Shown: positions 26,976 to 61,461 of the stretch, piece by piece | How positions within the stretch are numbered: the stretch's first letter is position 1 | Layout: the number at the start of each line of letters is the position of its first letter | IMG/VR virus record: IMGVR_UViG_3300005805_000073 | Location: 1-64,000 of that record | Origin: a virus | Taxonomy: Duplodnaviria > Caudoviricetes | Strand: one strand, 5' to 3' | Length of the DNA stretch: 64,000 bases | Notes under the pieces: model-generated | Databases searched by the model: none | What the model saw: the letters and a program-made list of their open reading frames with translations, nothing else | What the model was told of the DNA's origin: nothing | Position numbers and translations under genes: made by a program

Positions 26976-29345
26976 ATGGTACAAAAAGGTAAAACTACCA
27001 AGACCAAAAGAACACAACAGACAAAAGGTAAGTCAAAGGACCAACTGGCCCGTGACCTGCAAGCCGGATTGTTAAATAGTTCTCCTGCACATAATATGGA
27101 GCGCAATGTTGAGTTTGGTGGAAAAATGACTACTAGTATTGGGTCTATAATTGAAAATCTTACTGTAGAAAATGATGTAACACTTTCTGAAGAACAAAAT
27201 AAATTGTTCCAAGAAATGTTAAAGGCATTAAAAAAGATTTCTACTAGTACAGGTGATACCTCACGTGACCGTGAAGAATTGCGAACCATGATGGCTAAAA
27301 TGGTTGTACAAACAGAAAAACAAACAGAACAATTACAAAAAGAAGTAGAAAAGAGTGATAAGTCAATAGAAAGCAAGGAAGAAGAAATTCGTTATCTTCA
27401 ACAATGGCAAGATAAAGCAGAAGAAGATGCTAATCTGTCTGAGGATGAGAAAGAGGCTATTAAGAAAGACCTTGAAGGACGAAAGAAAGAACTAGAAGTT
27501 TTACAAGCAGAAAAACAAAAACTTCAAAAAACAAAAGAAAGTCAGGAAAAACTATCCCAAGATATCAAGGGAAAAATGGAAGAACCTGAGCCCAAGAGAT
27601 TGACATTAAAAGGCGCCATCAAAGGTGACATGACCAATATGTTACAGGGTATGATTCCTGGATTGGATTGGACTCCAAAGCCTGGCCAGGGTTATCGGGA
27701 TATGTTGAAGGGTAATACAAAAGAATTGTTCACAGGAAAAGGATTCATGAAAGCATTTAATAGTGTGCTTCTTGAACCAGGTAAACATGCCCCATCAAAT
27801 GAACAACTAATTGAATCTCAACGTTTGGCATCAAAGCAAGAAGAAGAATTACAAGGATTACAGGCTAGAATGATAGGAAATGAAGAAAAGAAGCCTGAAA
27901 CCAGTGGTGCTATAGAACAAGCCACAACAGAAGCAGCTCCTGAAAGTCTCTTACCAACTCTTACAAGTTTGTTAGAAGAAGTGGCTGTCATCAGAAAGAT
28001 TGTTGAAGGAAGTTTGGAACGAGATAAGGGTGGAAAATATCGTAGTACTGACACCGGTGAATATCTTGATAAAGAAAAGGTACGAACTGCAGGAACTGGA
28101 TTGTACACAAAGAATGAATTGAATCAACAATTAAGACTTTCTGAAACAGAACTAAAGAAAACAAAAATTGATGAGCTAGAACGTATGGCTGTGGAAGAGG
28201 GTCGTATCTCTCCTCTTGAACGAGCCTTGCCTGAAGAATCTGTTGATGAAGTGGAGGAAGATGTTGTTAAGGGTGAAATAGCAGAACCTACAAAGATGCT
28301 CGAAACTCTTGAAGAACAAGGAAAAATTCAGACAAAGGTTCTGACAACACTTGAAGAAATTGAAAAAGATACAACAATCAGTGCCAAGGTAGATAAGGAA
28401 CTTGATGCTGAGAAAGATGCAGATGAATCAACTTTGGATACCAAAGAAGATAATTTAGTGAAGGGGTCTGTCCAAGCTGAAAAGAAAGAAACGGCAGTTG
28501 CTACTATGGAAGGAGGACCCGAATCTCAAGGAGGGGGTAATCCTCTACTTGATAGATTGAAAAATAGAATCATGAATAGAGTGGGGGCACGTTTAGGAGA
28601 TATGGCAAAATCTAGAACAGGTATGAGTGGCAGAGTACTTCGAGGTGCTTCTCGTATGCTAGGTGGCGGAGGAGGAGGCGGATTACGTGCCGCAGGAATG
28701 TTAACTAGGGCTGCTCCTTTAGTGACTGGTGCCGGAACTGCTGCGGCCGGAGGCGCCGCAGCCGCTGGCGGAGCAGCCGCAGCAGGAGGTGCCGCAGCCG
28801 CAGGTGGTTTGGCTGCTGGGGGTGCTGCTGCTGGGGGTGCCGCAGCCGCAGGTGGATTGGCGGCAGGTGCCGGAGGAGCAGCTGCAGCAGGCGGCGCCGC
28901 AGCCGCAGGCGGAGCAGCCGCAGCAGGAGGTGGAGCTATGGCAGCCTTGGGAGGTGCAGCAGCAGCTGCCGCACCGTTTGTGTTAGGAGCTCTGGCTGTA
29001 GGGGCCATTGGTTATGGTGCTTACAAATTATGGCAATGGCGAAAGAAGAAGCGTGAAGAAAAGAAACAACAGGAAGAATTAAAGAAAGCCATGATGCAGG
29101 CACAAATTGCACAAGCAAGTCAGATGGCAAACAATAAGCCTGCCACAAGTACTGCACAACAAGTTTCTTCTGCAACCGAAGCAGCAACACCTGATATGCC
29201 AAGTTCAGGCACATCAACAACCATCAATAATATGGGGGTGGCATCAGGAGGCGGCGATCCTATTACACCGCCCGGCCCCACATCGGTTCGTATTCAAGAC
29301 AATAGTTTCATACGATTCCAAGATAAACGAACAGCACGGGTATAG
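26976..29345 (+). CDS. Tape-measure / baseplate hub gp29-like protein
   Basis: 789 aa with a charged coiled-coil N-terminus and a Gly/Ala hydrophobic segment; follows gp26/gp51. Confidence 0.65.
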   Translation: MVQKGKTTKTKRTQQTKGKSKDQLARDLQAGLLNSSPAHNMERNVEFGGKMTTSIGSIIENLTVENDVTLSEEQNKLFQEMLKALKKISTSTGDTSRDREELRTMMAKMVVQTEKQTEQLQKEVEKSDKSIESKEEEIRYLQQWQDKAEEDANLSEDEKEAIKKDLEGRKKELEVLQAEKQKLQKTKESQEKLSQDIKGKMEEPEPKRLTLKGAIKGDMTNMLQGMIPGLDWTPKPGQGYRDMLKGNTKELFTGKGFMKAFNSVLLEPGKHAPSNEQLIESQRLASKQEEELQGLQARMIGNEEKKPETSGAIEQATTEAAPESLLPTLTSLLEEVAVIRKIVEGSLERDKGGKYRSTDTGEYLDKEKVRTAGTGLYTKNELNQQLRLSETELKKTKIDELERMAVEEGRISPLERALPEESVDEVEEDVVKGEIAEPTKMLETLEEQGKIQTKVLTTLEEIEKDTTISAKVDKELDAEKDADESTLDTKEDNLVKGSVQAEKKETAVATMEGGPESQGGGNPLLDRLKNRIMNRVGARLGDMAKSRTGMSGRVLRGASRMLGGGGGGGLRAAGMLTRAAPLVTGAGTAAAGGAAAAGGAAAAGGAAAAGGLAAGGAAAGGAAAAGGLAAGAGGAAAAGGAAAAGGAAAAGGGAMAALGGAAAAAAPFVLGALAVGAIGYGAYKLWQWRKKKREEKKQQEELKKAMMQAQIAQASQMANNKPATSTAQQVSSATEAATPDMPSSGTSTTINNMGVASGGGDPITPPGPTSVRIQDNSFIRFQDKRTARV
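28735..28965. repeat. GC-rich tandem repeats encoding (A)AAAGG units
   Basis: More than ten imperfect gccgcagccgc(a/t)ggcgga-type units. Confidence 0.9.
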
Positions 29346-31916: not shown

Positions 31917-31945
31917 AACATACTATAAAGTTTGGATAATGTCAA
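31917..31945 (-). promoter_or_regulatory. Sigma70-type early promoter TTGACA-N17-TATGTT
   Basis: Upstream of the hydrolase gene, followed by an AAGGAGG RBS. Confidence 0.75.
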
Positions 31946-32694
31946 GAGTATCCAAACATCTCATAGTCATCTTGAAACAGGTAGCGTACTACATCGTCAA
32001 ATTTTTTTGTAGTGAAATCAATATTTACACTTGTATTGTTACTTGAATTAATTTGTTCAAGGTTGTTAGTTGAATATCCTAACGTTTTTTCAATCCAATA
32101 ATTAAACTCTGATAGGTTTTCATAACGAAATGTTTTTACTTGTGGATGATAAGCATACTCAGTTTGTGTTACAAACATACTTGTAACGAATGATGGATTT
32201 TCTGTTTGAAAAATCTCACCTACAATACAACCGGGTTTTAATTTACTATTTTTATCAAAATGTGTATATATGAAATTGTAAAATACTTCTTCATTTTCTA
32301 AGAAATTAAAAAAACTTCTGCTTTTTTTAAAATCAGCTATACTGTTATCCTTCTCCACAATTTCAATTTCACCACAAAATTCACATATGGACAAAATGTT
32401 ATGTACATCCATTTCTTTTAATTGTGAATTCAACTTACTTTGTAAATGTCTCAACCCTGAAATGAAACGACTTTTTGGATGTCTAACTAATCCAAATGCA
32501 AGTTCTATGTTTGGTTTATTTGCACACTGTGCAGATTTCATGCGAGAAAAACTTGCATGAGCATGAACTATCATATTAGTACTTTGTTCATTGAGCAATT
32601 CAGAAAAAAATAATTTTTGATATGAATGTGTTGCTGTTCTTGGCACCTTAACCCAAAAATATTTTTTACCATCTAATAACGAAGAAACAATCAT
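31942..32694 (-). CDS. Sulfotransferase family protein (Sulfotransfer_2-like)
   Basis: KVPRTAT (5'-PSB loop), VRHPKSRFIS (3'-PB) and terminal F.DDYEMFGY. Confidence 0.8.
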   Translation of the reverse strand: MIVSSLLDGKKYFWVKVPRTATHSYQKLFFSELLNEQSTNMIVHAHASFSRMKSAQCANKPNIELAFGLVRHPKSRFISGLRHLQSKLNSQLKEMDVHNILSICEFCGEIEIVEKDNSIADFKKSRSFFNFLENEEVFYNFIYTHFDKNSKLKPGCIVGEIFQTENPSFVTSMFVTQTEYAYHPQVKTFRYENLSEFNYWIEKTLGYSTNNLEQINSSNNTSVNIDFTTKKFDDVVRYLFQDDYEMFGYS

Positions 32695-32699
32695 ATTGT

Positions 32700-34208
32700 T
32701 TATGAAGTGAATTGTGTATAGCAGCTGTATGAAGAATTACACACACACGGAAAACTTGCCTTATAACAAACACCATAAGGGTTATAACACGCATATCCAC
32801 AGAATGCTGTGATTACAGACACCTCTGAATTGATATTCTCAGTGAAAAATCTATAGGATTCTACTGCTTCTTCAGGTGCTGAAGTGTATATTTTAAGAAA
32901 CATATGTTTTGTTTCTACTTTATTATTTTCTGAATCTAGAGCTCTAGTAACAATCCGATATGCGGCTGAAGGTAAATCAACAGGAGGATTTATCGTCAAT
33001 TTTGTACCATCAACGGTTATCCAACTAGGAAGGCTTGTGAATCCTCCTCCCTCGTTTGGTATTCCGTTAAATTGTAATTGTGTGGCATATAAATTGTTAT
33101 ATTCCAACACTATCTCATGTGAAGTCCCTTTTTGAATTGATACTTCATTAGGACCTGTGATGATACTAGATAATGTGGCAGCTCGAACCAATCGGTTAGG
33201 TGTAGTGCCATAGGTGATTTCGTTGCGGAATAGGATATCAATGCTACATCGTTCAATTAAATGAGTTTGTATTGCAGAGGCGTTCATGCTAGGATTTTCT
33301 ACAATATGTTGAGCCAAAGCTCCTGACACCACACCTGCAGCAATGGAAGTACCTGAGGCTTCCAACATACCTCCACTTATATCTGCAACATTCACATCTA
33401 TGCCTGGGGCAAAAACATCAACTTCAGGGCCAAAATTGCTTAGTGCACCTTCACCCCAGCTAATCACACGGTCATAGGCATCACTTGCACCAACTCCTAA
33501 TACCATATTTAATCCCACAGGTGAATAATCATCAGCAGCAACGCCTGTATTACCCGCAGCTGCAACCACCACAAGATTATCTGCGTACAACTCAGCAATT
33601 TTCAAATCTAGAATTTGACTCTTAGGAACCAACCAAGAACAATTCACAATGGCGACGGATGCAACATCATGATGATTTAAAATGGCATCAAAAGCAGCCA
33701 GTAAAACACTATATGTCGTTGATGAACCCGTTGGAATTTTCACATCATTAAGGTTCACATTTTTGGAAATGCCTAAAGTTTTACCTGCAATCACGCTGGC
33801 AACCGAAGTACCGTGTCCATTTGTAGGGGTGAAATCTGAATTATAACTAAACAATTTGTTTACTGTTGTATGAGAGAATTCTGGGTGTGTATCATCAATA
33901 CCAGAGTCAACAACATAAACATTCACACCATCACCATAGTTCTTTACCTTATAGAAGTTGGTCATGGGCAATCCTTCAGATACAATACGAAGCTGATGCC
34001 ATTCAAATGATTCTACTGGTGTAACCTCAGAATCAATTTCAAAAGTGATAACTCCTGAAACTTCTGAAAATGAGGTTGATTCTGCACTCAAGGTTAAAAC
34101 ACCAATATTCGAAAACACATCATGAATCACAGTGCCAGCTGATTCTAACTCAGACCGTAGAACATCGATGTCAACATTTTTATCATATATTACATTATAC
34201 TTTACCAT
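32700..34208 (-). CDS. Subtilisin-family S8 protease with prodomain, Ig-like domain and Cys/Tyr-rich C-terminal peptide
   Basis: Intact triad motifs VVDSGID, NGHGTSVAS and SGTSIAAG, plus AAGN oxyanion motif. Confidence 0.95.
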   Translation of the reverse strand: MVKYNVIYDKNVDIDVLRSELESAGTVIHDVFSNIGVLTLSAESTSFSEVSGVITFEIDSEVTPVESFEWHQLRIVSEGLPMTNFYKVKNYGDGVNVYVVDSGIDDTHPEFSHTTVNKLFSYNSDFTPTNGHGTSVASVIAGKTLGISKNVNLNDVKIPTGSSTTYSVLLAAFDAILNHHDVASVAIVNCSWLVPKSQILDLKIAELYADNLVVVAAAGNTGVAADDYSPVGLNMVLGVGASDAYDRVISWGEGALSNFGPEVDVFAPGIDVNVADISGGMLEASGTSIAAGVVSGALAQHIVENPSMNASAIQTHLIERCSIDILFRNEITYGTTPNRLVRAATLSSIITGPNEVSIQKGTSHEIVLEYNNLYATQLQFNGIPNEGGGFTSLPSWITVDGTKLTINPPVDLPSAAYRIVTRALDSENNKVETKHMFLKIYTSAPEEAVESYRFFTENINSEVSVITAFCGYACYNPYGVCYKASFPCVCNSSYSCYTQFTS

Positions 34209-34232
34209 GGGATTCCTCGTTTATAGTACAAG

Positions 34233-34838
34233 TTATCTATTATTTATATTGTTTGTATAACTAAACATTTCATTTATCCCTAAAATTTTTGTGGCCCATA
34301 TCTTTTCCATACAAAAATAACATCCCCCGCATTCGTTATAAGATACTCCGCAGGAAGCAGTCATTTTCAACAAGTCTAAAAGGTCATATTCTATATATTT
34401 TCTCACAATTTCTATCTTGTCCCACTCAATAAATGGTCTAATGTGACGCTCATTCAACGGGTCTCCACGAACAGGAGGGGTATCATCTGGGATGTATACT
34501 GTGGGAATAAATTGGTCGGTCACCACCTTGTTACATCCCGTAAACACGTAATCTGAATGACATACATTAAATACATCTCGAACCACATTTCGTATCCAAT
34601 CTCTGGGAGCTGAGCAATTATATGTGATAGTCAACGGAAATTTTTCCTGTATCCAAGAAATAATAGCTCTAACATAGGAGGGTCTTACTGTACCTCCTCT
34701 ATAGGAAACGCAATCCAAATGCACGTTTAATTTATTCTCGTGGATTTCTTTTGCTAGCAAATATAACAATAATGTACTGTCTATTCCGCCTGAAACTAAT
34801 ACGGTTATCTTACGAGCGTCGTTAGGTATCATATTCAT
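34233..34838 (-). CDS. QueC-like PP-loop ATPase (paralog 1)
   Basis: VSGGIDS PP-loop and C-terminal TASC...CGGCYFCMEK Zn site. Confidence 0.8.
   Translation of the reverse strand: MNMIPNDARKITVLVSGGIDSTLLLYLLAKEIHENKLNVHLDCVSYRGGTVRPSYVRAIISWIQEKFPLTITYNCSAPRDWIRNVVRDVFNVCHSDYVFTGCNKVVTDQFIPTVYIPDDTPPVRGDPLNERHIRPFIEWDKIEIVRKYIEYDLLDLLKMTASCGVSYNECGGCYFCMEKIWATKILGINEMFSYTNNINNR
34241..34248 (-). promoter_or_regulatory. T4-type late promoter TATAAATA upstream of the subtilase
   Basis: Exact consensus about 33 nt before the subtilase ATG. Confidence 0.7.
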
Positions 34839-34849: not shown

Positions 34850-35120
34850 TGGGGGTATTCTGTTCCCAGGAACCCCCTAACCCGGCTAAAATGTCTTACG
34901 CAGCTAGGGCGTAAGAGGTAGCGAATGACATATAATTGTTGTCATTTAATGTTTTTGCTCTGCTTAGGGCAGTCGCCTATCCGGTAGCTCTATCCTATAC
35001 TTCTTCCCCTGTCGAAACCAAGCACCCCCGAATATACCACACAAAACACTAATGGAGGTGAGGGGAGTCGAACCCCTGTCCAAGAAAAGTTTCCATTTTA
35101 GCAATCTACTACCATCCTAC
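34850..35120 (-). ncRNA. ssrA: Circularly permuted (two-piece) tmRNA; tag peptide (A)DNNYMSFATSYALAA
   Basis: Acceptor piece with T-arm AGGGG-TTCGACT-CCCCT and CACCTCC-A (ends 35053) precedes a 23-nt spacer. The coding piece starts GGGGGTG (35029) with a GGTTTCGAC loop. The G3.U70 pair is present. The tag ORF at 34943-34896 follows TAAAT and ends ALAA*. Ends are approximate. Confidence 0.92.
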
Positions 35121-35124: not shown

Positions 35125-35784
35125 TTATTTATACACCTCGTATAAATCACGATAATACAACAACTGTTCCACATGAAGGTCACGTTTGCTTTCAAACACT
35201 TGCATGAACCCATCTGATACTGCAATCAAGATGGTCAGTCTGTTCACAGGTATCTTGGTTCGTTCCTCAAACATGATGGCATAGGCAGCTGCTTGCATGA
35301 AATAGTGTTGGATGTGTTCCACATCTTTCTCTCGTCGCGCCGTCTTGAAGTCAATCACACTGAGTTTACCATCAAAATTGGCTATGCAATCCACTCGACC
35401 TGCCAACCGAAGATGGTGTGACCATAACGCCACTTCTTGAGCTCTGATATTGTCAATTCTGTCTAACACAGGATTAGCAACCTGAAACATCTCATGGTCC
35501 CAGAGGGACATATCTCTGCCTGACAAATTGTTCTGAAGATATTTTTCTACTAAAGTATGAAATCTAGTACCCCAGGCAGCTGCTTGTCGAGACACCTTAT
35601 TGGCCTCTTCAGCACCAACACGTGCCCTCCACTCCTGAATACCCTTTTTGGTGTGCTCAGAAAGAACAGAGGTGACAGATGGATAGAGCCCACCATCAGG
35701 TGTTTGATAGGCTCTGGTTCCATCTGCCTGTGTCACGGCGGATATGGTTTCTATTGTTACTGGATCATGGAGGAATGTTTTCAT
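35125..35784 (-). CDS. PD-(D/E)XK exonuclease of T4-like phages
   Basis: YPSVTSVL...EWR.RVG.EEA...GT.FH...E..L.S..L.LAGRVDC...IDFKT...YF.Q..AYA motif. Confidence 0.92.
   Translation of the reverse strand: MKTFLHDPVTIETISAVTQADGTRAYQTPDGGLYPSVTSVLSEHTKKGIQEWRARVGAEEANKVSRQAAAWGTRFHTLVEKYLQNNLSGRDMSLWDHEMFQVANPVLDRIDNIRAQEVALWSHHLRLAGRVDCIANFDGKLSVIDFKTARREKDVEHIQHYFMQAAAYAIMFEERTKIPVNRLTILIAVSDGFMQVFESKRDLHVEQLLYYRDLYEVYK
35126..35133 (-). promoter_or_regulatory. T4-type late promoter TATAAATA directly upstream of the tmRNA
   Basis: Exact consensus overlapping the exonuclease stop codon. Confidence 0.75.
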
Positions 35785-38432: not shown

Positions 38433-38461
38433 AATCTAACACCATATATGGTATTTGTCAA
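38433..38461 (-). promoter_or_regulatory. Sigma70-type promoter TTGACA-N17-TAGATT
   Basis: Upstream of ligase, followed by an AAGGAGG RBS. Confidence 0.75.
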
Positions 38462-39561
38462 GTGTTATTTAACAAATGGTGAAAATTGTGTCCAACTGTA
38501 GCACCACTTACAGTTTTTTTATTGTGTATTTTTTGTAGTTCCAAAAGGAATTGTTGATGTTGTTCATGTTCTGGTTCAAATACTGAAATAGCTTTAACAT
38601 GAGCAGAAGAATATGCACCCGTTCCCCAATACACATGTTGTCTATAGTGGATATAAAGTTGAATTTTAGATTTAGAAAAAATATCGTTAAATGTGTGATA
38701 AAAATCTTCCATCTCTTTGTAATTATATTCGCTGACCACCATAGAAACAATAAAGTGTTCTATACTATCTTGTGTGCTTAAATATTGTATGTTGGAAATT
38801 AATCTATCCCAATCTCCGTTCAACCGCGTAATGTTTTCATATGTATCTTTGGTTCCTGCGTCTACACTAATTTCTATTCGTTTGATGAACTTTCTGGCAC
38901 CTAAACTCATCCACATTTTTTCATTTAACAAATTGCCATTTGTAATAATCTGTATTTCTTCTAGTTTAGGATATTTTTTAGGATCAAAATCTATCAGATA
39001 ATTTCTATACAGTTTAGAGTAAAAAGGATCACCGCTTCCAGTTATCATTAAACGTTTCACATTAGCAGCAAATTTTGTTTCAATTTGTTCTAAAAGATAT
39101 TCTTTTCTTTTGTGTGCAAATGAATTTACATCGTCATTCGGCACTTGTTCATTTCTGCATGATGGACATTTTAAGTTACAACTCCTATCGAATCCGAATA
39201 AAATATACTCAGGGAGACCCTGAAAATTCTCAACATCTTCTAAAGAAGTTATATTAAAAGTTTTGAGTGCTTCAGACTTTTCTATGAATTCTATAGGTAC
39301 TTCATCGGTATTAATTAATTTAGATAAAGAAGGACAAACTTTATGGTCGCAGTGACGATAAGTTCCATCTAGTACTGATTTTCTAATATCAGTTACCGTA
39401 GGACCTTGCCAATCTTTTAATAGGTCTTCCTGCATCGGTGGGGCATCGCCCCCTATATTAGTAGGTGCCCAACTAGGACAACATATCCACTGACCTATAG
39501 GTTGAATATCTAGATATGTGAAAGGATTTTTACAGACATACTTTTTTAATTTTTCTGACAT
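38458..39561 (-). CDS. Radical SAM enzyme with N-terminal twitch/SPASM-like Cys cluster (1)
   Basis: CNLKCPSC; N-terminal C.NPF...CCPSW...C...CP; TGSGDPF and TNG motifs. Confidence 0.9.
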   Translation of the reverse strand: MSEKLKKYVCKNPFTYLDIQPIGQWICCPSWAPTNIGGDAPPMQEDLLKDWQGPTVTDIRKSVLDGTYRHCDHKVCPSLSKLINTDEVPIEFIEKSEALKTFNITSLEDVENFQGLPEYILFGFDRSCNLKCPSCRNEQVPNDDVNSFAHKRKEYLLEQIETKFAANVKRLMITGSGDPFYSKLYRNYLIDFDPKKYPKLEEIQIITNGNLLNEKMWMSLGARKFIKRIEISVDAGTKDTYENITRLNGDWDRLISNIQYLSTQDSIEHFIVSMVVSEYNYKEMEDFYHTFNDIFSKSKIQLYIHYRQHVYWGTGAYSSAHVKAISVFEPEHEQHQQFLLELQKIHNKKTVSGATVGHNFHHLLNNT

Positions 39562-40187
39562 TAGAATGCCACCCATTTTCCTGATCCGTAGTGTGGATAT
39601 TTGGATTTATAGGTGTAATGAATTACATCTGCAGGTATCTCTCGTTTTTTGTTCCATGTGGCTTCAGTCGGTGTGTAGGTAGAAACACCATTATCTTCAA
39701 CTATAAAATATAATGGCAAATCAAAATTTCTAGCATACTTATGTACCTCATAGAATATACCAGTCTCAAAACACATATCACCAATAAAGCACCAAACTTT
39801 ATCTGAACTATTTTGTAACTTTAATGATTTTGCTACGCCTAAGGCAATAGGTAAAGTAGCAGTTACAATAGCGGATGAATAGAATTTTTCATCAATATTA
39901 CATAGAGTTATAGACTTCCCTTGCAATATTTCATTCTTAACCCATTCAGAAGATATACCTTTTAACAAAGCATGATAATGTGACCTCCAAGTACTAAAAA
40001 CCCAATCTGAAGGCTTTATACGCTTGAATATTTCGATGAGTTGAGATTCGTTACCATCGGAAAGATGAATAGGACCGCGTATTTGTCCGGCCTCCCAATG
40101 TGCAACTATATCTGTTTCAAACTCCTGCAAATCCTTTTCACTGATGGTTACTTCTCGCACGGATGCATATTGCTCTAGATTAATCAT
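39561..40187 (-). CDS. Truncated TPP-dependent dehydrogenase E1 alpha-like subunit
   Basis: G..HLS.G.E, STWRSHYHALLKG and IGD....G.FYE...LP..F..EDN motifs; only 208 aa. Confidence 0.85.
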   Translation of the reverse strand: MINLEQYASVREVTISEKDLQEFETDIVAHWEAGQIRGPIHLSDGNESQLIEIFKRIKPSDWVFSTWRSHYHALLKGISSEWVKNEILQGKSITLCNIDEKFYSSAIVTATLPIALGVAKSLKLQNSSDKVWCFIGDMCFETGIFYEVHKYARNFDLPLYFIVEDNGVSTYTPTEATWNKKREIPADVIHYTYKSKYPHYGSGKWVAF

Positions 40188-40188
40188 T

Positions 40189-40749
40189 TTACATCTCCAC
40201 TAAAACGTTCTTGTCCCTATTCTGTAATATCGGATTATCGCTGGGCCATTCTATATTGAAACGAGGATCATTCCATTTTACAACTTTTTGCGATGATTCA
40301 TCTACATATTCCCCCTCATAAAATAAATTATAGTGGAAGATGCAATCTGTCAAGGCGTAGTGACCATTTGCAAAACCAGGGGGTATAAGTACTTGGTCTC
40401 TATTCTTTTCAGAAATTATATAGGATTCCCACTTGCCAAAGGTGGGTAATGTTTCTCGCATATCTAGCACCACCAAATATATATCACCCACTAATGCTTG
40501 TACTAGCTTCCATGTTTTAAAATCATAATGAAGCCCTCGAAGAACACCTTTATAAGATTGAGAAAACCGTGAATGAATATTGTCCAAAGATACTAAGGAA
40601 TTTACAGGATGATGTTTGCTATGATAGGTTGTGAATATTTCTCCACGAAATTCTTTATACACAGACGGTGTATATATTGGAACCCATTTATCAAAAGTTT
40701 TTAAATAACTTATGTCATATTCATTCCATTTTCTATTTTTATAATTCAT
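40189..40749 (-). CDS. rmlC: dTDP-4-dehydrorhamnose 3,5-epimerase
   Basis: RGE, GVLRGLHY, KLV, G.IY.V.LD.R, IPPGFANGH and W.DP..NIEWP motifs. Confidence 0.92.
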   Translation of the reverse strand: MNYKNRKWNEYDISYLKTFDKWVPIYTPSVYKEFRGEIFTTYHSKHHPVNSLVSLDNIHSRFSQSYKGVLRGLHYDFKTWKLVQALVGDIYLVVLDMRETLPTFGKWESYIISEKNRDQVLIPPGFANGHYALTDCIFHYNLFYEGEYVDESSQKVVKWNDPRFNIEWPSDNPILQNRDKNVLVEM

Positions 40750-40750
40750 A

Positions 40751-41917
40751 TCACACCTCTGTATATATTTTTTCTGTTGCATTTTTCAATAAATCAAAAT
40801 ACATTATTTTACAGTTATCTTTTGTGAAATTGTTATATTCTTTTTTAAATTCAGACAATTCTCTTTTTTCCATAGAAACAATTTTATCTACAAACTTCTG
40901 TGCATGTACCATTCGCTGTGCAGCATCTTCAATTTGGTCATAATCATGATTCCAAAAATCAAAACGGTATTTCAGTCCTAAATTCTCTAATGCCTGTAAC
41001 ACGTTTGGTTTACCAAGAAACACAAATGGGTGACCAGTAAACGTAGGGCGCATTATTTTTTCAGAAATATGCCCCCATGTCTTGGAAGTATGTAATGTGC
41101 CTCCTCCCATATCAGGAGTTATATGATAAAATCTTGTTTCAGCAACAATTTCAAAGTAGCTATCTAAGTATGATACTAAATTAAAACTATTTCCTCGAAT
41201 ATTGTAGTCATCATATCCTTGATAATCATGGAAATATGGTAACTGCTTTAAAATATCAAAGCTATTAAATTTTTCTTTAAACACGCGCGGAACTAGGTCA
41301 TCAATTATACCTAGGTCATAATCAGGTGCAGTACTCCCCCACATGAAATCATTTAAGTATCCTCTTTGATGTAAAAATTCCAACATCTCAACTTTATGAT
41401 ATCTAGTATGTCCTACATGGTATATACCTTTATACTTTCTTAAAAATTGGTGTTGAGTTCTTTCAATATTACGTAAGGATTCAAAAGATGAATAGTTAAC
41501 ATCATCCACTCCTGTATAATGAAACATTAATGCAGGAAACCAAAAATGATTTTGTCTTTTAGACAATAAATTTCCGCTGATTATTCCGCAGTCTACATCT
41601 ATCAGACTTTCACATGCAAGAAAAAAATCCTCGGATACTTCCTGTAGGTCGTAACCAGATACATCATAAAATATTTTTTTGAATTTTCTATGCTGTAACT
41701 GTTTTTTTAAAGAAGGTAAAATTACATCAAATGACCGCCAATCTGAAAAACCAACAAATAAAGTGGTGTTTTCATCCATTTCAGAGAAATCTACAATTTC
41801 AACATCTGTATATCTTATGAAACAATGCTTTAGTTCAGTAAATTGGTCATGTTCATGCATTAATAACCAATCACCGTTTAATAATTTAAATTTTATGAAG
41901 CAAAGTTTTTTTGTCAT
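40751..41917 (-). CDS. Putative glycosyltransferase (GT10-like TEK motif), paralog 1
   Basis: SYFEIVAET...ISEKIMRP....PFVFLG...L..LG...F; function inferred. Confidence 0.5.
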   Translation of the reverse strand: MTKKLCFIKFKLLNGDWLLMHEHDQFTELKHCFIRYTDVEIVDFSEMDENTTLFVGFSDWRSFDVILPSLKKQLQHRKFKKIFYDVSGYDLQEVSEDFFLACESLIDVDCGIISGNLLSKRQNHFWFPALMFHYTGVDDVNYSSFESLRNIERTQHQFLRKYKGIYHVGHTRYHKVEMLEFLHQRGYLNDFMWGSTAPDYDLGIIDDLVPRVFKEKFNSFDILKQLPYFHDYQGYDDYNIRGNSFNLVSYLDSYFEIVAETRFYHITPDMGGGTLHTSKTWGHISEKIMRPTFTGHPFVFLGKPNVLQALENLGLKYRFDFWNHDYDQIEDAAQRMVHAQKFVDKIVSMEKRELSEFKKEYNNFTKDNCKIMYFDLLKNATEKIYTEV

Positions 41918-43134: not shown

Positions 43135-43639
43135 CTAAACAATGAATTCCTCCCTTTAAGGCTTCTTGATAGCCTAAAACGATATCATCGGATGTTTTTA
43201 AATCATGAAACGTGACATGCTTGCACATGGAACGAAATTCATTAATGTAATTATTTTTATGTTGATGTCCGGGGTCTAAAGGTTTATCGCTACCTTTTCC
43301 TAAACGAATCAATAAATTTATTGGTTTACCTGTCATCAAGCTATACTTGTCCACACTATTAATTAACTGGTTAGACGCTACAATGATGAAGTCCCAGCGA
43401 GGATAAAAGGTAACGACATTTTTACCTGTCATAGCTAATCCTAGCGACATGCCCATTTGAGTTTCTTCCATAACAGGCGTTTCAATCATATTTTCTTTCG
43501 GCACATTTCCTAGAGTAGTACTCATAGGATTTCCGGGATATATAATTTGTTGCCCTACGAAAATAAAATTTTCTTTTGCCAGTAAAGTCATGGCATCAGT
43601 TAAGGAATCTTTATATGGGGTGAAATTTGTATTGCTCAT
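43106..43639 (-). CDS. Truncated E1 beta / transketolase pyrimidine-binding subunit
   Basis: ETPVMEETQMG...GLA..G...V....R.DF...A.NQLIN...GHQH motifs; lacks the C-terminal domain. Confidence 0.85.
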   Translation of the reverse strand: MSNTNFTPYKDSLTDAMTLLAKENFIFVGQQIIYPGNPMSTTLGNVPKENMIETPVMEETQMGMSLGLAMTGKNVVTFYPRWDFIIVASNQLINSVDKYSLMTGKPINLLIRLGKGSDKPLDPGHQHKNNYINEFRSMCKHVTFHDLKTSDDIVLGYQEALKGGIHCLVEYPELYYV

Positions 43640-43640
43640 A

Positions 43641-44579: not shown

Positions 44580-44606
44580 AATCTAGTAGTTTGAAGTTTA
44601 TTTTAT

Positions 44607-57936: not shown

Positions 57937-57965
57937 AATATAACACTTTGTTATGTGGAAGTCAA
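57937..57965 (-). promoter_or_regulatory. Sigma70-type promoter TTGACT-N17-TATATT
   Basis: Upstream of uvsE, followed by a GAGGT RBS. Confidence 0.7.
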
Positions 57966-58508
57966 GTCCTGAATACCACATTTTCTAAAGGCCCAGGCGC
58001 GTTCTCGGCACTGCCAACACTGGCGACAGCGGCCAATAGCTCTTTCCGTACAGGTGTGTGTTAATGGTAACAAGTCCATCACATCATGTTCCATATACAA
58101 TTTCAGGATGTCAATCTTGGTCAGATGAAAGAATGGATATATGGCTCTTTCACTTTTCATCTGAATTCTTTTTGGTCCCTCTGGTAATTCATCTTCTGGA
58201 TAACTGTTATCACCTATGTAAAAAGAATCACACAAATTGTGTCGCACCACACGATTAATGGCATCACCTAGTATCATTTCATGCGATAAATCTGGATTTC
58301 CTAACACAACGGGAGAATGAATACAGGAGTTGGTTTTGTTAATCACCCAATCAATGATGGGTTGCACATATGTGGTCGCACCATCATGTTTAGGCACCGT
58401 GAATGGTTGAATACATGATGGTGTTTTCTGGGCCACAAGATATAGAAGAAGTGCACTATCCATGCCGCCGGATAAAAAAATGCCTACTCTATGTTCTGCT
58501 GTATGCAT
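57951..58508 (-). CDS. QueC-like PP-loop ATPase (paralog 2)
   Basis: LSGGMDS and THTC...C..CWQCRER.WAF motifs. Confidence 0.8.
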   Translation of the reverse strand: MHTAEHRVGIFLSGGMDSALLLYLVAQKTPSCIQPFTVPKHDGATTYVQPIIDWVINKTNSCIHSPVVLGNPDLSHEMILGDAINRVVRHNLCDSFYIGDNSYPEDELPEGPKRIQMKSERAIYPFFHLTKIDILKLYMEHDVMDLLPLTHTCTERAIGRCRQCWQCRERAWAFRKCGIQDLTST

Positions 58509-58645: not shown

Positions 58646-58870
58646 TCAACATGCTGTCCACTCAATTCTGTTGCCATCTTCATCAATTCTGGGAAATTCT
58701 CCTTCGTGAGTTTCATTTCGTTTGGGTGCATCATATAATCCTATCTCCTGTGAAAATGCAGTTAATTCATCTGCTTTGTTAAAAATTCTATCCCAATTAT
58801 CATCAAACTGTTTCTTGTTAACACTCAATGGTCGAGGACTATCACCTTTGCCGTTCATAAACACTCTCAA
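58646..58870 (-). CDS. Small hypothetical protein
   Basis: GKGD.PRP.......DNWDRIF, a motif common in small T4-like phage ORFs. Confidence 0.65.
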   Translation of the reverse strand: MRVFMNGKGDSPRPLSVNKKQFDDNWDRIFNKADELTAFSQEIGLYDAPKRNETHEGEFPRIDEDGNRIEWTAC

Positions 58871-59459
58871 ATAACTGGTTGAACTGATTCACATCCTGTA
58901 ACATTTCTTCATCACTATATTTAGATGGATTGTAACGATATTGATTTTTTACAATAGGCAAATTTAATGCTTCATTTATCATGAATGGATTATTAAGAAT
59001 ATCTAAATCATAGAAACTATAGTCACACCTAGATTCAAAATTCATATGCTTATAGTAATAATCTAATCGTTCTTGTATCTCCTGTTCAGATATTACCAAT
59101 GTACCAACGTAAGGATATCGGACATCTTTATTTGCATAAGAATCGGTTTGTTTGGCTACAACGTTTTTTAACACATATCTTCGAATATCCTTAGGTTTGA
59201 TAAAAACCGTTTTATATTTACTATTCAATATATTTTCTACCATGTCCCAACTGTGATTGGAAATGATTTTAATCAAAGGTAAATCAACTATAACCTTTTC
59301 ATATTTTTCCTGTATCTGTTCCGGTGTGTTGTATCTAGGATTGAAAATAGAGCTAGCAAAGGAACTACGATTTTTAAAATCCAAGAACACCAACCCTGCA
59401 TGAATTTGATGCCAGGTGAAGGTGGATGCTGTTCTAGGTAATGATATAATGCAATACAT
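58842..59459 (-). CDS. Putative sulfotransferase-like P-loop protein
   Basis: N-terminal IISLPRTAST resembles the PAPS-binding loop. Confidence 0.45.
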   Translation of the reverse strand: MYCIISLPRTASTFTWHQIHAGLVFLDFKNRSSFASSIFNPRYNTPEQIQEKYEKVIVDLPLIKIISNHSWDMVENILNSKYKTVFIKPKDIRRYVLKNVVAKQTDSYANKDVRYPYVGTLVISEQEIQERLDYYYKHMNFESRCDYSFYDLDILNNPFMINEALNLPIVKNQYRYNPSKYSDEEMLQDVNQFNQLFESVYERQR

Positions 59460-59674: not shown

Positions 59675-60439
59675 TTACCTACCCATCTCCTTACGAATCT
59701 TGGTTGCTGAGATGTTTTCTATCTCGGCATCAAGTGAAATTTTCTCAACTTCATATCCCACATCTCTTCCGTAATACACACCACAGATGTTAGGTGCCTG
59801 AATGACAATATATTTGTTATTGTATTCCTTTAATGCCTCATGAATTCTATTTTTCACAAAGATGAAGTCAAATGGATTCTTTTCATCAGTGCCATGAGTA
59901 TCACGAACCATAATCATCACTTGTCCTTGCTTCTTCAAAATCTCCTCGAACAGCTTCTTATGACCATCATGGAAAGGTTGGAATCTTCCAATCATTAGTC
60001 CTGTAGGCTTTTTGTTGTCAAAGGCAATACCCATGTTGATACGCCACATAATATCCTTTACTTGATCCTCAACAACTCCCCACTCGGTAATCACATAGTC
60101 GGGATGTATAGGGCGTTCAAATGCTCGGTTGGTATCCTCAAACCGCCCTTCTGAAATAGTATCCATGAAGATGGTAAAATCAGCAGAATAGTGTCTCCGA
60201 GTTTCCTCAGTGGGACATACAAAGTCTGCTACTACGTGTTTTTCGTAATCTTCTGCCACCCAGGCCAGGTCTGCCATACGTTGTGCTTGTCGAACTCGAC
60301 CTTCATTGGTGAAATCCCAATCATTATATTGTTTGCGAACTTCATCAGCATTTAAATACACAGCATCTAACTTTTCGGCTAACACTTTTGATAACGTGGT
60401 CTTACCTGAGCCAGGAAGACCCATCACTAAAATTCTCAT
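59675..60439 (-). CDS. cysC: Adenylyl-sulfate kinase fused to a cytidylyltransferase-like (HIGH-type) domain
   Basis: GLPGSGKT...NAD.VR...F...GR..Q...DFVCP; C-terminal IGRFQPFHDGH...SATKIR. Confidence 0.88.
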   Translation of the reverse strand: MRILVMGLPGSGKTTLSKVLAEKLDAVYLNADEVRKQYNDWDFTNEGRVRQAQRMADLAWVAEDYEKHVVADFVCPTEETRRHYSADFTIFMDTISEGRFEDTNRAFERPIHPDYVITEWGVVEDQVKDIMWRINMGIAFDNKKPTGLMIGRFQPFHDGHKKLFEEILKKQGQVMIMVRDTHGTDEKNPFDFIFVKNRIHEALKEYNNKYIVIQAPNICGVYYGRDVGYEVEKISLDAEIENISATKIRKEMGR

Positions 60440-61461
60440 ACTCCCTCCGGCGTTGTAGACCAAACTATGGTTCGTAATTCAGGTTTATATTCCTTTCGTA
60501 TCTGTGTTTCTACAAAACGTTTAAAATCATTTACATCTCTAAATGTGTGTCGAACACCGCGGTGATAAACACCAAACATCCCTACAATTTCAAGAACATC
60601 AATCTTATTGATGATGAGGTCTGTGACATCATTAATGTACATGGCTTGAATGACATCATCAAGATGCAACCAACGTACCTGACGCTTTCTTCCTGTTGTA
60701 GCTCCAAATTCTTGTCCAGCTTCCTGAATCTTGTCTAGAAGTTCCTGGTCACCTTTATCATTATAAGATTTAAATCCTGAATATGTTTCATAAGCCTTCA
60801 TCACACCATACACACTACGCCAAGTTCTAGGAGGCACACCATTCAATGCCACAGCACCTGAAGTGCAATGTGAACTGGTGACATAGGGATAATCACCCCA
60901 ATCAATATCAATTTGAAATCCTTGAGCACCCTCACAGAGGATGTTTAAGTCACGATGTTCATTATGAAAGAATTGATATGTATCAATCATATCATATGGC
61001 AGGTCCCAACTATTATATTTCAAAAACTCACGCATACGGGTTCCTGTTCTTCCATACTTGTCACGATAGGTAGGACCAATGCCCTGACGTGTGGTACCTA
61101 TTTTTGTATCACTACTATCTTCATCAAGGTGTTTTTGTGTTGTGATATGACACCGAGCATCAATCATGATGGGAGCATCAAATCCTAATTGTTCCAGCAT
61201 TTCAATTTCTTCACGAAGCTTCGGTAAATTCACAACACACCCAACACCAATCACGCAAGGAATGCCGTAAAATATTCCCACTGGGACTTGGTGTGTAACA
61301 ATTTTCTTACCTTCATGATAAATGGTATGTCCGGCATTGGCACCGCCATTATACCGTAACACAACATCATAATTATTGTTCTTGGCCAACCAGTGGGATA
61401 CCTTCCCTTTGCCTGTATCACCTGCCTGTAAATCTACCACAATGTCTGCATAACGAATCAT
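60436..61461 (-). CDS. purA: Adenylosuccinate synthetase
   Basis: GDTGKGK, GGANAGHT, IGTT.QGIGPTY.DK, EGAQG..D.D.G.YPYVTSS, GATTGRKR and NKID motifs. Confidence 0.95.
   Translation of the reverse strand: MIRYADIVVDLQAGDTGKGKVSHWLAKNNNYDVVLRYNGGANAGHTIYHEGKKIVTHQVPVGIFYGIPCVIGVGCVVNLPKLREEIEMLEQLGFDAPIMIDARCHITTQKHLDEDSSDTKIGTTRQGIGPTYRDKYGRTGTRMREFLKYNSWDLPYDMIDTYQFFHNEHRDLNILCEGAQGFQIDIDWGDYPYVTSSHCTSGAVALNGVPPRTWRSVYGVMKAYETYSGFKSYNDKGDQELLDKIQEAGQEFGATTGRKRQVRWLHLDDVIQAMYINDVTDLIINKIDVLEIVGMFGVYHRGVRHTFRDVNDFKRFVETQIRKEYKPELRTIVWSTTPEGV

Follow-up and report, generated by a model that had tools for sequence, protein, structure and literature searches.

A subtilase with a hypervariable cysteine tail and a neighbouring QueC-like ATPase in a candidate late-gene module of aquatic T4-like phages

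Introduction

Proteinase K, Vibrio proteinase 1S2N, aqualysin, PCSK9 and furin/kexin share an I9-type propeptide, an S8 domain with a D/H/S triad and a beta-sandwich domain, and PCSK9, PACE4 and PC5 also have a Cys-rich C-terminal region. The phage protease described here is built in the same way, but it is cytoplasmic and without a signal peptide, its beta-sandwich is Ig-like/dystroglycan-like rather than a P-domain, and its Cys region is a hypervariable knot of 20-40 residues. We know of no obligate PP-loop ATPase partner for any of those subtilases or convertases. In the S8 peptidase systems of RiPP biosynthesis (LanP/NisP, PatA/PatG, and QhpE with the QhpC gamma subunit) a subtilase is likewise tied to a short Cys-rich peptide that becomes cross-linked; in the phage, however, the core is part of the protease chain rather than a precursor of its own. 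The phage subtilase matched the corresponding models weakly (PatA/PatG, 43.5 against a cut-off of 421; QhpE, 45.8 against 165), and in about 60 loci no LanB/C/M, YcaO or radical SAM-SPASM maturase gene was syntenic with it. A lanthipeptide- or cyanobactin-type S8 system was rejected because the PatA/PatG score fell below the cut-off and the loci held no dehydratase or cyclase genes.

Lasso peptide synthetases pair a B protease with a C cyclase, which is a PP-loop enzyme resembling asparagine synthetase and activates a carboxylate, and borosins carry the substrate peptide fused to the C-terminus of their own enzyme. The phage module may be likened to the former as a pair of protease and PP-loop enzyme and to the latter as an enzyme-core fusion. 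It differs from lasso synthetases in its folds, with an S8 protease in place of a transglutaminase-like one and a QueC-type enzyme of 200 aa in place of an AsnB-type enzyme of 600 aa, and the tail analysed here offers no Asp or Glu for an isopeptide ring. With QueC itself (7-cyano-7-deazaguanine synthase) the phage ATPase has in common an SGGxDS PP-loop and a C-terminal Cys cluster, but it is shorter (201 aa) and has a protease as its constant neighbour. Knottins, conotoxins and cyclotides likewise combine conserved cysteines, hypervariable loops, several frameworks (C-C-CC-C-C among them) and a conserved preceding region; the phage module, known here from its Cys spacing, is instead fused to a 470-residue enzyme and has no secretion signal. 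As in RaxX/RaxST and other sulfated peptides, a sulfotransferase gene adjoins one for a peptide-like module with many Tyr, Ser and Thr residues. The phage enzyme differs in matching carbohydrate-type Sulfotransfer_2 and Gal3ST-like families, Tyr positions are not conserved among the phage tails, and the gene is missing from about 40% of loci. We found no paper describing the protease-ATPase module, and did not find the module in any cultured phage.

Results and Discussion

Organisation of the locus

The locus lies in a 64,000-nucleotide stretch of the virus record IMGVR_UViG_3300005805_000073 (Caudoviricetes), referred to below as the window. Three tightly packed genes at 31942-34838 on the minus strand encode a QueC-like PP-loop ATPase (201 aa; QueC1), an S8 subtilase (502 aa) and a Sulfotransfer_2-like protein (250 aa). 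A preliminary description of this DNA had reported these sequence features, and all of them were found in place. It had also put the sulfotransferase gene just 3' of the protease gene; the two do adjoin, with a gap of 5 nt after the stop codon rather than 6. The late promoter that it proposed ahead of the protease gene is borne out by a perfect T4-type late box, TATAAATA, at 34241..34248 on the minus strand, 33 nt upstream of the protease ATG and within the last QueC1 codons. A second TATAAATA box is found at 35126..35133 (minus strand), upstream of a tmRNA gene and the QueC-like gene. Of the seven late boxes in the window, six are on the coding strand and precede a gene start or the tmRNA by no more than about 150 nt. 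Judged by its promoter, the protease gene is expressed late.

Architecture of the protease

The subtilase gene (32700-34208, minus strand) gave a clear match to Pfam PF00082 Peptidase_S8 (E 3e-24, 86 bits against a cut-off of 21.8). Its family comprises more than 850 homologs of about 500 aa from T4-like phages of freshwater and other aquatic habitats; the best 120 of these, nearly all 499-526 aa long, covered 82-100% (mostly 97-100%) of the query. The catalytic residues D101, H132 and S288 were invariant in those 120 homologs, as was N220, the oxyanion Asn as set by alignment to the subtilisin motif AAAGN. Residues 1-69 (34002..34208, minus strand) form an I9-like domain without a signal peptide, with a beta-alpha-beta-beta-alpha-beta order of secondary structure (AlphaFold2, whole-model pLDDT 90), which we take from knowledge of the family to be a propeptide. 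A dip in pLDDT at residues 62-66 likely marks the autoprocessing junction in the model. The proteinase-K-type catalytic domain (residues 70-340; 33189..34001, minus strand), which carries the clade-specific patches DRVISW (246-251) and LFRNE (326-330), aligned in Foldseek to proteinase K, Vibrio proteinase and aqualysin with target-normalised TM scores of 0.88-0.91 and E about 1e-21. Proteinase K and Vibrio proteinase were the best structural matches (TM about 0.9), and PCSK9 aligned too.

The catalytic domain is followed by an Ig-like (cadherin/dystroglycan-like) beta-sandwich (residues 341-442, the fold itself spanning about 345-442; 32883..33188, minus strand), modelled with a pLDDT of about 90-97 and aligned by VIA-align to adhesin and dystroglycan Ig-like domains with Z 8.7 and 8.6. 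Next comes an acidic linker with two predicted beta-strands (residues 443-469; 32802..32882, minus strand), which had been read as a leader-like stretch. The same linker is present in sister-clade subtilases that have no Cys tail, and it is therefore not a leader specific to a core. The protein ends in a six-Cys tail (residues 470-502; 32703..32801, minus strand) with a conserved Cys scaffold and hypervariable loops.

Variability of the Cys tail

The window tail, FCGYACYNPYGVCYKASFPCVCNSSYSCYTQFTS, has 33 residues in the pattern C-x3-C-x6-C-x6-C-x-C-x5-C with six Tyr, and lacks Asp and Glu, which leaves the C-terminus as its sole carboxylate. Six tail cysteines were present in 104 of the 120 homologs, the remainder having four-Cys or knottin-like C-C-CC-C-C frameworks. 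The usual framework is C-C-C-CxC-C, with a minority of C-x5-C-x5-CC-x3-C-x4-C, and both the number of cysteines (4, 6 or 8) and the length of the loops (0-13 residues) differ widely between tails. CxxC pairs are rare, the loops are aromatic and Gly/Ser-rich, and the residues past the last Cys vary in length and sequence. AlphaFold2 modelled the tail at moderate confidence (pLDDT 61-77), and sequence and structure searches with it returned no match to a known fold or family.

Comparison of homologs bore out the suspicion that a hypervariable Cys tail sits on a conserved protease: identity of the non-Cys tail residues fell to 53%, 33% and 13% where that of the catalytic domain was 93%, 77% and 59%, and variability rose toward the C-terminus from the catalytic domain through the Ig-like domain and linker to the tail. 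A 98.5%-identical strain from two other studies differed at 9 nt of the 99-nt tail against 20 of the other 1407 nt (odds ratio 6.9, p 5e-5); in the same strain a codon test of the tail was marginal (p 0.065). Eight close pairs together showed 44 nonsynonymous and 29 synonymous codon changes in the tail, against 246 and 449 in the rest of the gene (odds ratio 2.8, p 6e-5); relaxed constraint would account for the raised ratio in the tail as well as diversifying selection would. From these alignments, the residues between the tail cysteines are the fastest-evolving part of the protease.

Such a pattern is consistent with more than one function. As in toxin and RiPP precursors, a conserved pre-region and Cys scaffold here go with hypervariable loops and interchangeable Cys frameworks, and the protein could be a true RiPP-like precursor fused to its own protease. 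The tail would then be self-cut at a conserved A-x|C site, the QueC-like ATPase would activate the carboxylate of the freed peptide (for C-terminal amidation, a nitrile as in QueC chemistry, or head-to-tail ligation into a cyclotide-like knot), the sulfotransferase would decorate it, and a bioactive knottin-like molecule would be released at lysis. An Ala at position -2 before the first tail Cys recurs among the homologs and favours such cleavage; a P2 Ala followed by a hydrophobic P1 is a suitable site for an enzyme of the proteinase K type. Position P1, on the other hand, is not conserved, the linker is older than the Cys tail as its presence in the Cys-free clade indicates, and the variable ends past the last Cys also count against processing of this kind. 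Chemistry at the tail C-terminus would be implied by one lineage (P0108, locus L009) in which a Hint-like domain starts right after the tail, with Cys1 at the junction and a TxxH block (TNDH); its residues 530-604 scored 26.6 bits against the Pfam Vint cut-off of 27 (E 5.8e-6). The C-terminus as the only carboxylate of the window tail also counts for a RiPP-like precursor. The Hint lineage nevertheless retains both QueC-like genes, and Hint and QueC-like functions are therefore not alternatives. No transporter or immunity gene was found nearby, and no fused form of greater length. We consider a self-releasing RiPP-like precursor rather unlikely.

The climb in variability toward the C-terminus equally recalls phage host-recognition proteins. 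The tail could thus be an unmodified structural domain, a small disulfide-rich binding tip that directs the protease, released by lysis or carried on the virion, to a variable target, comparable to the Cys-rich C-termini of proprotein convertases and the variable tips of phage receptor-binding proteins. The ATPase, a kinase-nucleotidyltransferase and the sulfotransferase would then belong to a sugar and nucleotide modification repertoire linked by operon structure only, and the complex prediction described below would be a false pass. The resemblance of the Ig-like domain to adhesin domains and late expression together with structural genes speak for an unmodified tip. The missing signal peptide speaks against it, since no disulfides would therefore form before lysis.

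Pairing with a QueC-like ATPase

QueC1 (34233..34838, minus strand) matched Pfam QueC above the cut-off (E 4.5e-6), with the match confined to the C-terminal 45 residues; against the TIGR00364 equivalog it reached 20.9 bits (cut-off 150) over residues 134-178 only, short of a full-length match. A search of PDB sequences gave no match at E up to 1, and the N-terminus showed weak similarity to LarE. The PP-loop motif SGGIDS occupies residues 16-21, and C102, C163, C170, C173 and C176 are invariant, the last four making up a C-terminal C-x6-C-x2-C-x2-C cluster. No QueD, QueE, FolE or DpdA/Tgt was found among the Pfam-scanned window proteins, several ORFs being familyless and the record about 46% complete.

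Every Cys-tail locus with room for it has a PP-loop ATPase gene immediately 5' of the protease gene. This pairing spans two genome arrangements and 40-100% sequence identity, and the QueC1 and protease genes overlap by 4 bp in two loci (L007 and L009). The sole exception to QueC1 was locus L058, where a different PP-loop ATPase holds the position. In the second arrangement, QueC1 and the protease cluster with a gene for an unknown 205-aa protein, which in the window lies at 58842..59459 (minus strand), and directly upstream of QueC1 is a gene that in the window (59675..60463, minus strand) encodes a 262-aa fusion of a P-loop kinase (weakly APS-kinase-like) to a cytidylyltransferase-like domain. 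The window also encodes QueC2 (57951..58508, minus strand; 185 aa), a paralogue 30% identical to QueC1 that in other phages lies beside QueC1 and the protease. None of the 27 sister-clade loci, whose tails are without Cys, had a QueC1-like gene adjoining the protease; in two of them (L068/L069) a 232-aa QueC2-like gene was located about 9 kb downstream. The expectation that a QueC-like gene goes with the Cys tail thus held strictly; as a correlation the link is weak, the two clades representing essentially one evolutionary split.

In complex prediction, QueC1 and the protease scored 0.64, and the best of three controls 0.00; among reference pairs, 58 of 80 solved complexes and 2 of 110 mismatched pairs attained that mark. 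Runs agreed in at least 97% of contacts, with a partner pLDDT of at least 87. QueC1 is predicted to bind clade-specific invariant patches on the catalytic domain: the protease-side interface comprises residues 80, 245-249, 324-331, 334 and 338, of which 245-249 and 324-331 are invariant in the Cys-tail clade and differ in the clade without QueC1 (DRVISW against SDNVPTF, LFRNE against LFQDP). The predicted interface leaves out the tail.

These results bear on both readings of the tail set out above. An obligate, docked (in prediction) ATP-dependent partner counts for a RiPP precursor; that the model keeps the tail out of the interface counts against it, and likewise against action of the ATPase on the tail. 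Strict, translationally coupled pairing through two arrangements and 40-100% identity sits poorly with a purely structural tip, as does a predicted docking surface that is invariant only in the ATPase-bearing clade. A tip with unrelated neighbours would be easier to accept given the two mismatched pairs of 110 that passed the complex test, and given that related QueC-like genes elsewhere lie among glycosyltransferase and hydroxylase genes.

The sulfotransferase

The 250-aa protein encoded at 31942..32694 (minus strand) matched Pfam PF03567 (E 2.7e-5, 24.9 bits against a cut-off of 22) and the PHROG 'galactose-3-O-sulfotransferase' (E 6e-8). Its PAPS-loop-like motifs VKVPRTAT and VRHPKSRFIS correspond to the 5'-phosphosulfate loop (PKxGT-like) and the 3'-phosphate motif (RxPxxRxxS-like) of PAPS-dependent sulfotransferases, and P18, T20, T22, R71, P73, R76 and S79 are invariant in six orthologs. 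The matched families are carbohydrate-type, which favours the structural tip, and the genome is rich in sugar-modification genes; both points count against the mode of action proposed below.

The gene is facultative, present in about 60% of loci and missing from about 40%. Asp and Glu together made up 3.7% of residues in tails with an adjacent sulfotransferase gene and 12.4% in those without any (p 4e-5, not phylogeny-corrected). In phylogenetically independent pairs the association with acid-poor tails ran in the same direction in 3 of 3 (median p 0.25, too few for significance). The proposal that the sulfotransferase is a tailoring partner therefore stands in part: tails are acid-poor where it is present, but some 40% of loci do without it, and the tails of homologs show no conservation of Tyr. 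This accompaniment of acid-poor tails by the sulfotransferase is a further point against an unmodified structural tip, a reading that we judge unlikely.

Proposed mode of action

Taken with the pairing described above, the preliminary RiPP-like reading can be kept for a tethered, variable Cys module that is probably modified, and is not supported for the radical SAM linkage and the core-specific leader. We propose that the subtilase starts as a cytoplasmic zymogen and, by family precedent, probably removes its own I9-like propeptide. After the catalytic domain come the Ig-like spacer, the acidic beta-hairpin linker and a mini-domain of 20-40 residues that keeps its cysteines (usually six) and alters nearly everything between them. 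QueC1, which retains the ATP-pyrophosphatase loop and the Cys cluster, would be the obligate partner, predicted to dock on the rear face of the catalytic domain, beside the exit of the Ig-like arm. There it could carry out an ATP-dependent (adenylating) modification of the tethered Cys tail or of a protease product, with the protease body in the role of a RiPP leader peptide. The optional sulfotransferase would probably add negative charge, as O-sulfate, to tails without Asp and Glu. Disulfides most likely form between the cysteines after the protein leaves the reducing cytoplasm at lysis, and the variable knot would then be the recognition or bioactive part.

The module may thus make a modified, variable recognition domain or peptide. 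That aquatic T4-like phages share in it a conserved set of late genes, encoding a two-protein enzyme with a variable 'business end', is a reading we hold tentatively, with confidence just short of even. A bolder version would make it a new phage class of ribosomal natural-product machinery. The subtilase would be both scaffold ('giant leader') and releasing protease for a fused hypervariable Cys-knot peptide, the docked QueC-type ATPase would activate the peptide carboxylate so that an amide or nitrile forms or the chain is closed head to tail as a cyclotide-like knot, and the optional sulfotransferase would add charge. We regard this as speculative and doubtful; if true, abundant freshwater and marine T4-like phages release diversifying bioactive peptides at lysis.

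Other genes in the window

Further candidate tailoring genes had been listed, and all are present: three radical SAM genes (38458-39576, 41914-43134 and 52842-54287, the last scoring 26.1 bits, under the Pfam cut-off of 29.5), a 2OG oxygenase (45643-46452), the second QueC-like and APS-kinase-like genes described above, and an IscA-like gene (61471-61794). Their proposed connection with the protease did not hold. The radical SAM, 2OG and most of the other genes belong to a nucleotide-sugar island and are not syntenic with the protease; the nearest radical SAM gene in the window is 4.2 kb away. Radical SAM genes were absent from the module in the roughly 60 loci examined and, where present, lay upstream of genes for PhoH, PDDEXK or carbamoyltransferase, within the sugar island. 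A ranthipeptide/SCIFF or sactipeptide route was found to be without support, there being no syntenic radical SAM-SPASM maturase and the Cys module being fused to a 470-aa enzyme. The sugar island of the window genome is large, with epimerases, carbamoyltransferase and radical SAM genes, and as such lends some weight to the structural tip.

The IscA-like gene, which in locus L007 lies three genes upstream of the protease, raises the question of a metal- or sulfur-handling tail. Its six cysteines would bind Zn or an Fe-S cluster with help from the IscA-like protein, or carry a persulfide, and act as a tethered sulfur or cluster donor to the PP-loop ATPase in chemistry of the LarE, TtuA or ThiI type. 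PP-loop enzymes do include sulfur insertases, and both the weak LarE similarity of the QueC1 N-terminus and its five invariant cysteines would fit. We nevertheless think this very improbable: Cys spacing and number vary widely, unlike conserved metal sites, the rarity of CxxC pairs and the aromatic, Gly/Ser-rich loops look like small disulfide-rich domains, and of about 60 loci only one has IscA linked to the protease.

The tmRNA gene directly upstream of the module (34896..35113, minus strand) is of the permuted, alphaproteobacterial type (Rfam RF04321, 119.7 bits), and its tag peptide as given by ARAGORN is DNNYMSFATSYALAA.

Genomic context and predicted timing of the module

The three genes of the module lie on the minus strand, with spacers of 24 and 5 nt between them. 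They encode QueC1, a QueC-like PP-loop ATPase of 201 aa (34233-34838; Pfam QueC, E 4.5e-6 over the C-terminal part, plus the PP-loop), an S8 subtilase of 502 aa (32700-34208; Pfam Peptidase_S8, E 3e-24) and a Sulfotransfer_2-like protein of 250 aa (31942-32694; Pfam Sulfotransfer_2, E 2.7e-5). The preliminary description was right in every detail that we checked, except that the last spacer is 5 nt and not 6 nt. T4-type genes flank the module on both sides, with PhoH, a PD-(D/E)XK nuclease and a permuted tmRNA upstream, and a SleB-like cell-wall hydrolase, the late-transcription coactivator gp33, gp59 and gp32 downstream. The window belongs to a 76-kb IMG/VR virus record that is ~46% complete, and the public runs containing the stretch were lake and freshwater metagenomes from six studies. 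The tmRNA (34896-35113, minus strand; Rfam RF04321, 119.7 bits; tag peptide DNNYMSFATSYALAA) is of the permuted alphaproteobacterial type, which suggests an alphaproteobacterial host; since the runs come from lakes, this host is possibly a freshwater SAR11-like bacterium.

A perfect TATAAATA box was found 33 nt 5' of the protease ATG, and a further box precedes the tmRNA. Of the seven boxes of this type in the window, six stand on the coding strand just 5' of the tmRNA or a gene start, and most of them precede baseplate and tail genes. This placement, upstream of the protease ATG and of late-type genes, identifies the protease as a predicted late gene. Freshwater metatranscriptome RNA contigs spanned two stretches of the protease gene, but we do not count them as evidence of expression because DNA carry-over is possible.

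A conserved subtilase with a hypervariable cysteine scaffold

The protease was modeled with AlphaFold2 using 120 homologs (mean pLDDT 90). In this model residues 1-69 form an N-terminal beta-alpha-beta-beta-alpha-beta propeptide without a signal peptide, and the catalytic domain finds its best structural matches in proteinase K and the cold-adapted proteinases of Vibrio and Serratia (TM ~0.9). An Ig-like sandwich follows at residues ~345-442 (Z 8.7 and 8.6 to adhesin and dystroglycan Ig-like domains), then an acidic linker with two predicted strands (residues 443-469) and the 33-residue tail, modeled at pLDDT 61-77. D101, H132, N220 and S288 were invariant among homologs. The family comprises more than 850 matches in public metagenomes; the best 120 of these were nearly all 499-526 aa long, with a query coverage of 97-100% for most. 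A search for longer fusions of the protease (880-2510 aa) found none at E 1e-30 or better, a negative that weighs little.

Six cysteines were present in the tails of 104 of the 120 sequences, in the framework C-x3-6-C-x3-12-C-x3-13-C-x-C-x3-9-C. Another 11 carried a four-Cys framework (C-x5-C-x5-C-x4-C), and a few showed either a knottin-like arrangement (C-x5-C-x5-CC-x3-C-x4-C) or eight cysteines. The residues between the cysteines were the fastest-evolving part of the protein, with identities of 53%, 33% and 13% where the catalytic domain was 93%, 77% and 59% identical, respectively; the Ig-like domain and linker were intermediate. The proposal that a hypervariable tail would be found on a conserved protease is thus borne out. 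A strain that is 98.5% identical over the stretch, and that occurs in runs from two other studies, showed 9 differences from the window within the 99-nt tail, against 20 in the remaining 1407 nt of the gene (odds ratio 6.9, p 5e-5), with two changes apiece in three tail codons. When eight close pairs were pooled, the ratio of nonsynonymous to synonymous codon changes was 44:29 in the tail and 246:449 elsewhere (odds ratio 2.8, p 6e-5). These comparisons show relaxed or diversifying evolution of the tail loops, with the cysteines strictly retained, and are not proof of positive selection.

The tail alone matched no Pfam family and no PDB sequence at E values up to 10. The ESM Atlas gave no usable match by features, all structure rows having TM <0.45, and a fold search with the C-terminal model returned matches confined to the Ig-like domain, so that the tail itself was barely probed. 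In its conserved cysteines and hypervariable loops the tail resembles modules of toxins and host-recognition proteins. One lineage carries a further domain: in the protease variant P0108 (L009 6001-7953) a putative Hint (Vint-like) autoprocessing domain, showing an N-terminal Cys and a TxxH block, is fused directly after the Cys tail. In this locus QueC1 and its paralog QueC2 lie side by side ahead of the protease, and the sulfotransferase is absent. The position of the Hint domain implies, as far as domain order can tell, that the tail C-terminus would undergo chemistry in at least one lineage.

QueC1 is a constant partner of the Cys-tail protease

Homologs of 19 window proteins were mapped on 6 loci found by exact protein and 80 from IMG/VR. 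QueC1 directly precedes the protease in every Cys-tail locus with room upstream, across two arrangements and with L058 as the exception. This locus, the only one without a QueC1 match, has a different PP-loop ATPase of 281 aa at the same position. The first arrangement, which is that of the window, reads PhoH, PD-(D/E)XK, QueC1, protease, (sulfotransferase), SleB, gp33. The second reads carbamoyltransferase, an unknown 205-aa protein, (QueC2), kinase-nucleotidyltransferase, QueC1, protease, (sulfotransferase) and a 78-aa Zn-ribbon protein; in L007 and L009 the QueC1 and protease genes overlap by 4 bp. The cluster genes of the second arrangement are all present in the window too, but 24-27 kb off, at 57.9-60.5 kb, which speaks for a broader functional set.

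Phage subtilases of a sister clade (563-577 aa, 27 loci) share the propeptide, the catalytic and Ig-like domains and the acidic linker, and end in a Cys-free tail (...KGMQAAFGGGNFQLK). None of the 27 loci has a QueC1-like gene beside the protease; L068 and L069 carry a 232-aa QueC2-like gene ~9 kb downstream. The acidic stretch, previously described as leader-like, is therefore also present in the clade without a Cys tail, and is not a leader peculiar to the Cys core. That the tail is an ordinary unmodified binding tip, as its likeness to host-recognition modules would allow, and that its neighbours are unrelated to it, we consider unlikely in view of the constant position of QueC1.

Several other genes lie near the module in other loci. 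The 78-aa Cys-rich Zn-ribbon protein (DUF6171-like) is conserved in L007 (8331-8567), L009 (7953-8186) and ten more loci, its gene lying shortly 3' of the protease or sulfotransferase in the second arrangement; it has no homolog among window ORFs of at least 50 aa. Downstream of the module, L007 also encodes a second short S8 protease of 258 aa consisting of the catalytic domain only (8579-9355) and two PF11397 (Skp1-type GlcNAc transferase family) proteins (9412-11923). In the four-Cys-tail lineage a 260-aa gene lies between protease and sulfotransferase (L034 11516-12298; equivalents in L021, L041, L042, L051 and L052); its product has a GDSL/SGNH-like N-terminal motif and no Pfam match.

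A predicted complex of protease and QueC1

QueC1 keeps the SGGxDS loop, five invariant cysteines and invariant polar residues that include N103, R124, H132, R134, K141 and E178, and is, from these motifs, probably an active ATP pyrophosphatase. On the QueC equivalog model it scores 20.9 bits, below the cut-off of 150, and sequence comparison with the PDB gave no relative. The proteins most like it are all viral, and QueC2 (57951-58508, minus strand) is 30% identical to it.

We folded the two proteins together from the protease alignment (120 sequences) and the QueC1 alignment (91). The complex scored 0.64, and the best of three controls 0.00. Of 80 solved complexes, 58 scored at this level, as did 2 of 110 mismatched pairs; this calibration holds only roughly because the alignments were our own. 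Three runs shared at least 97% of contacts, with a partner pLDDT of at least 87. No solved complex of this kind is known to us, so the prediction is unlikely to repeat an existing structure. The prediction supports, but does not show, binding of QueC1 to the protease. On the protease side the predicted interface comprises residues 80, 245-249, 324-331, 334 and 338, which fall in two motifs that are invariant in the Cys-tail clade (DRVISW and LFRNE); the clade without QueC1 has SDNVPTF, and LFQDP or LLVDN, at the same positions. By homology with subtilisin, this surface would lie on the rear face of the catalytic domain, towards its C-terminal end and the exit of the Ig-like arm, and outside the substrate cleft. 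The tail is absent from the confident contacts of the complex. A metal or sulfur-relay role for its cysteines seems very improbable to us.

In an unrelated phage contig (L090 4942-8995) an Asp/Asn beta-hydroxylase gene lies between two more distantly related QueC-like genes, one of which encodes a protein with an unknown 220-aa C-terminal extension, and genes for a PF11397 glycosyltransferase and a papain-like (C1) protease adjoin them on the opposite strand. These neighbours are a hint that the QueC-like phage family works with protein- or glycan-modifying enzymes, and not in queuosine synthesis. The combination of QueC-like genes with proteases thus recurs in L090.

The sulfotransferase is optional and the radical SAM genes lie elsewhere

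A sulfotransferase occurred in ~60% of the Cys-tail loci (adjacent in 16 distinct loci, one gene away in 7, absent from 14), with its PAPS-loop-like motifs conserved. Tails beside an adjacent sulfotransferase were rich in Ser, Thr and Tyr, and their Asp plus Glu content was 3.7%, vs 12.4% in tails without one (p 4e-5, uncorrected for phylogeny). In a tree from which the tail was left out, the presence of the sulfotransferase switches at least four times, and each of the three independent pairs links its absence to a more acidic tail, a number of pairs that cannot reach significance. As a lead, these compositions would fit a role of sulfate in supplying charge that is encoded directly in other tails. 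Conserved Tyr sulfation was considered and rejected: Tyr content did not differ between loci with and without the sulfotransferase (p 0.66), and Tyr positions in the tail were not conserved among homologs.

The three radical SAM genes, together with the 2OG oxygenase and carbamoyltransferase genes, belong to a large nucleotide-sugar or glycan modification island (38458-54287, minus strand), which further includes three NAD-dependent epimerases/dehydratases, a dTDP-sugar isomerase, a TPP-enzyme fragment and several ORFs without a family. In other loci the radical SAM, 2OG oxygenase and carbamoyltransferase genes were variable and never adjoined the protease. Among the tailoring genes that had been expected to co-occur with the tail, the QueC-like gene did so strictly and the sulfotransferase in part, and the radical SAM genes did not. 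The RiPP-like idea accordingly keeps its hypervariable core, its strictly co-occurring QueC-like enzyme and its predicted late expression, and loses radical SAM thioether formation. We regard a true released RiPP-like peptide as rather unlikely, and a new class of ribosomal peptide machinery would likewise be a minority outcome.

Interpretation and novelty of the module

The observations agree with a late enzyme of two subunits that carries a variable Cys module on a tether; the docked ATPase would probably modify this module, as would the sulfotransferase where there is one. We tentatively favour this model of a docked partner and a modified tail, at somewhat less than even confidence and with no commitment on release.

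In cultured phages, tblastn of the protease found only the S8 proteases of Bacillus and Acinetobacter phages, at 35% identity or less, and QueC1 matched only Ralstonia phage RsoM2USA (29% identity, amid unannotated genes). Megablast of the region gave no match. By these sequence searches, no cultured phage was found with the module. The literature held no description of it that we could find, the 'subtilisin' matches being a tail-sheath domain name. Precedents exist for S8 proteases carrying C-terminal domains, for QueC-like genes in phages and for Cys-rich mini-domains. Absent from the papers searched and from cultured phages is their combination here: a protease fused to a hypervariable Cys module, an obligate PP-loop ATPase that is predicted to be bound, an optional sulfotransferase and one constant location in the core genome of an aquatic T4-like lineage that is widespread.

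The module is not a one-off: its protease family is large, and it keeps one place among the conserved genes for replication and late transcription in these phages. In a predicted complex it joins a secretion-type protease to an ATPase of the nucleotide-biosynthesis type. Should the tail be modified or released, the system would represent a new ribosomal-peptide route and a large natural collection of mini-protein scaffolds; if the tail stays attached, it would be a new variable targeting domain on a phage enzyme, with the ATP-dependent partner unexplained. Phage QueC-like genes are usually annotated as queuosine genes by default, and either way the module offers a cloneable three-gene system (2.9 kb) for probing their function.

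Other genes of the window

Between the sugar island and QueC2 lie genes for a UvdE-type UV damage endonuclease (57015-57911, minus strand) and an Amidase_2 N-acetylmuramoyl-L-alanine amidase (56322-56831, minus strand). A 789-aa ORF (26976-29345, plus strand) occupies a stretch of raised G+C (0.47 vs ~0.37), its sole match being a marginal one to Pfam ATP-synt_E (22.3 bits vs a cut-off of 22). The window also encodes a short (341 aa) adenylosuccinate-synthetase homolog, a candidate PurA or PurZ (60436-61461, minus strand), and a member of the IMPDH/GMP-reductase family (55063-56082, minus strand). PurZ-type enzymes, which go with 2-aminoadenine genomes, are known in Arthrobacter, Vibrio and Acinetobacter phages, and the phage relatives of the adenylosuccinate-synthetase homolog were mostly found in phages of these same three genera.
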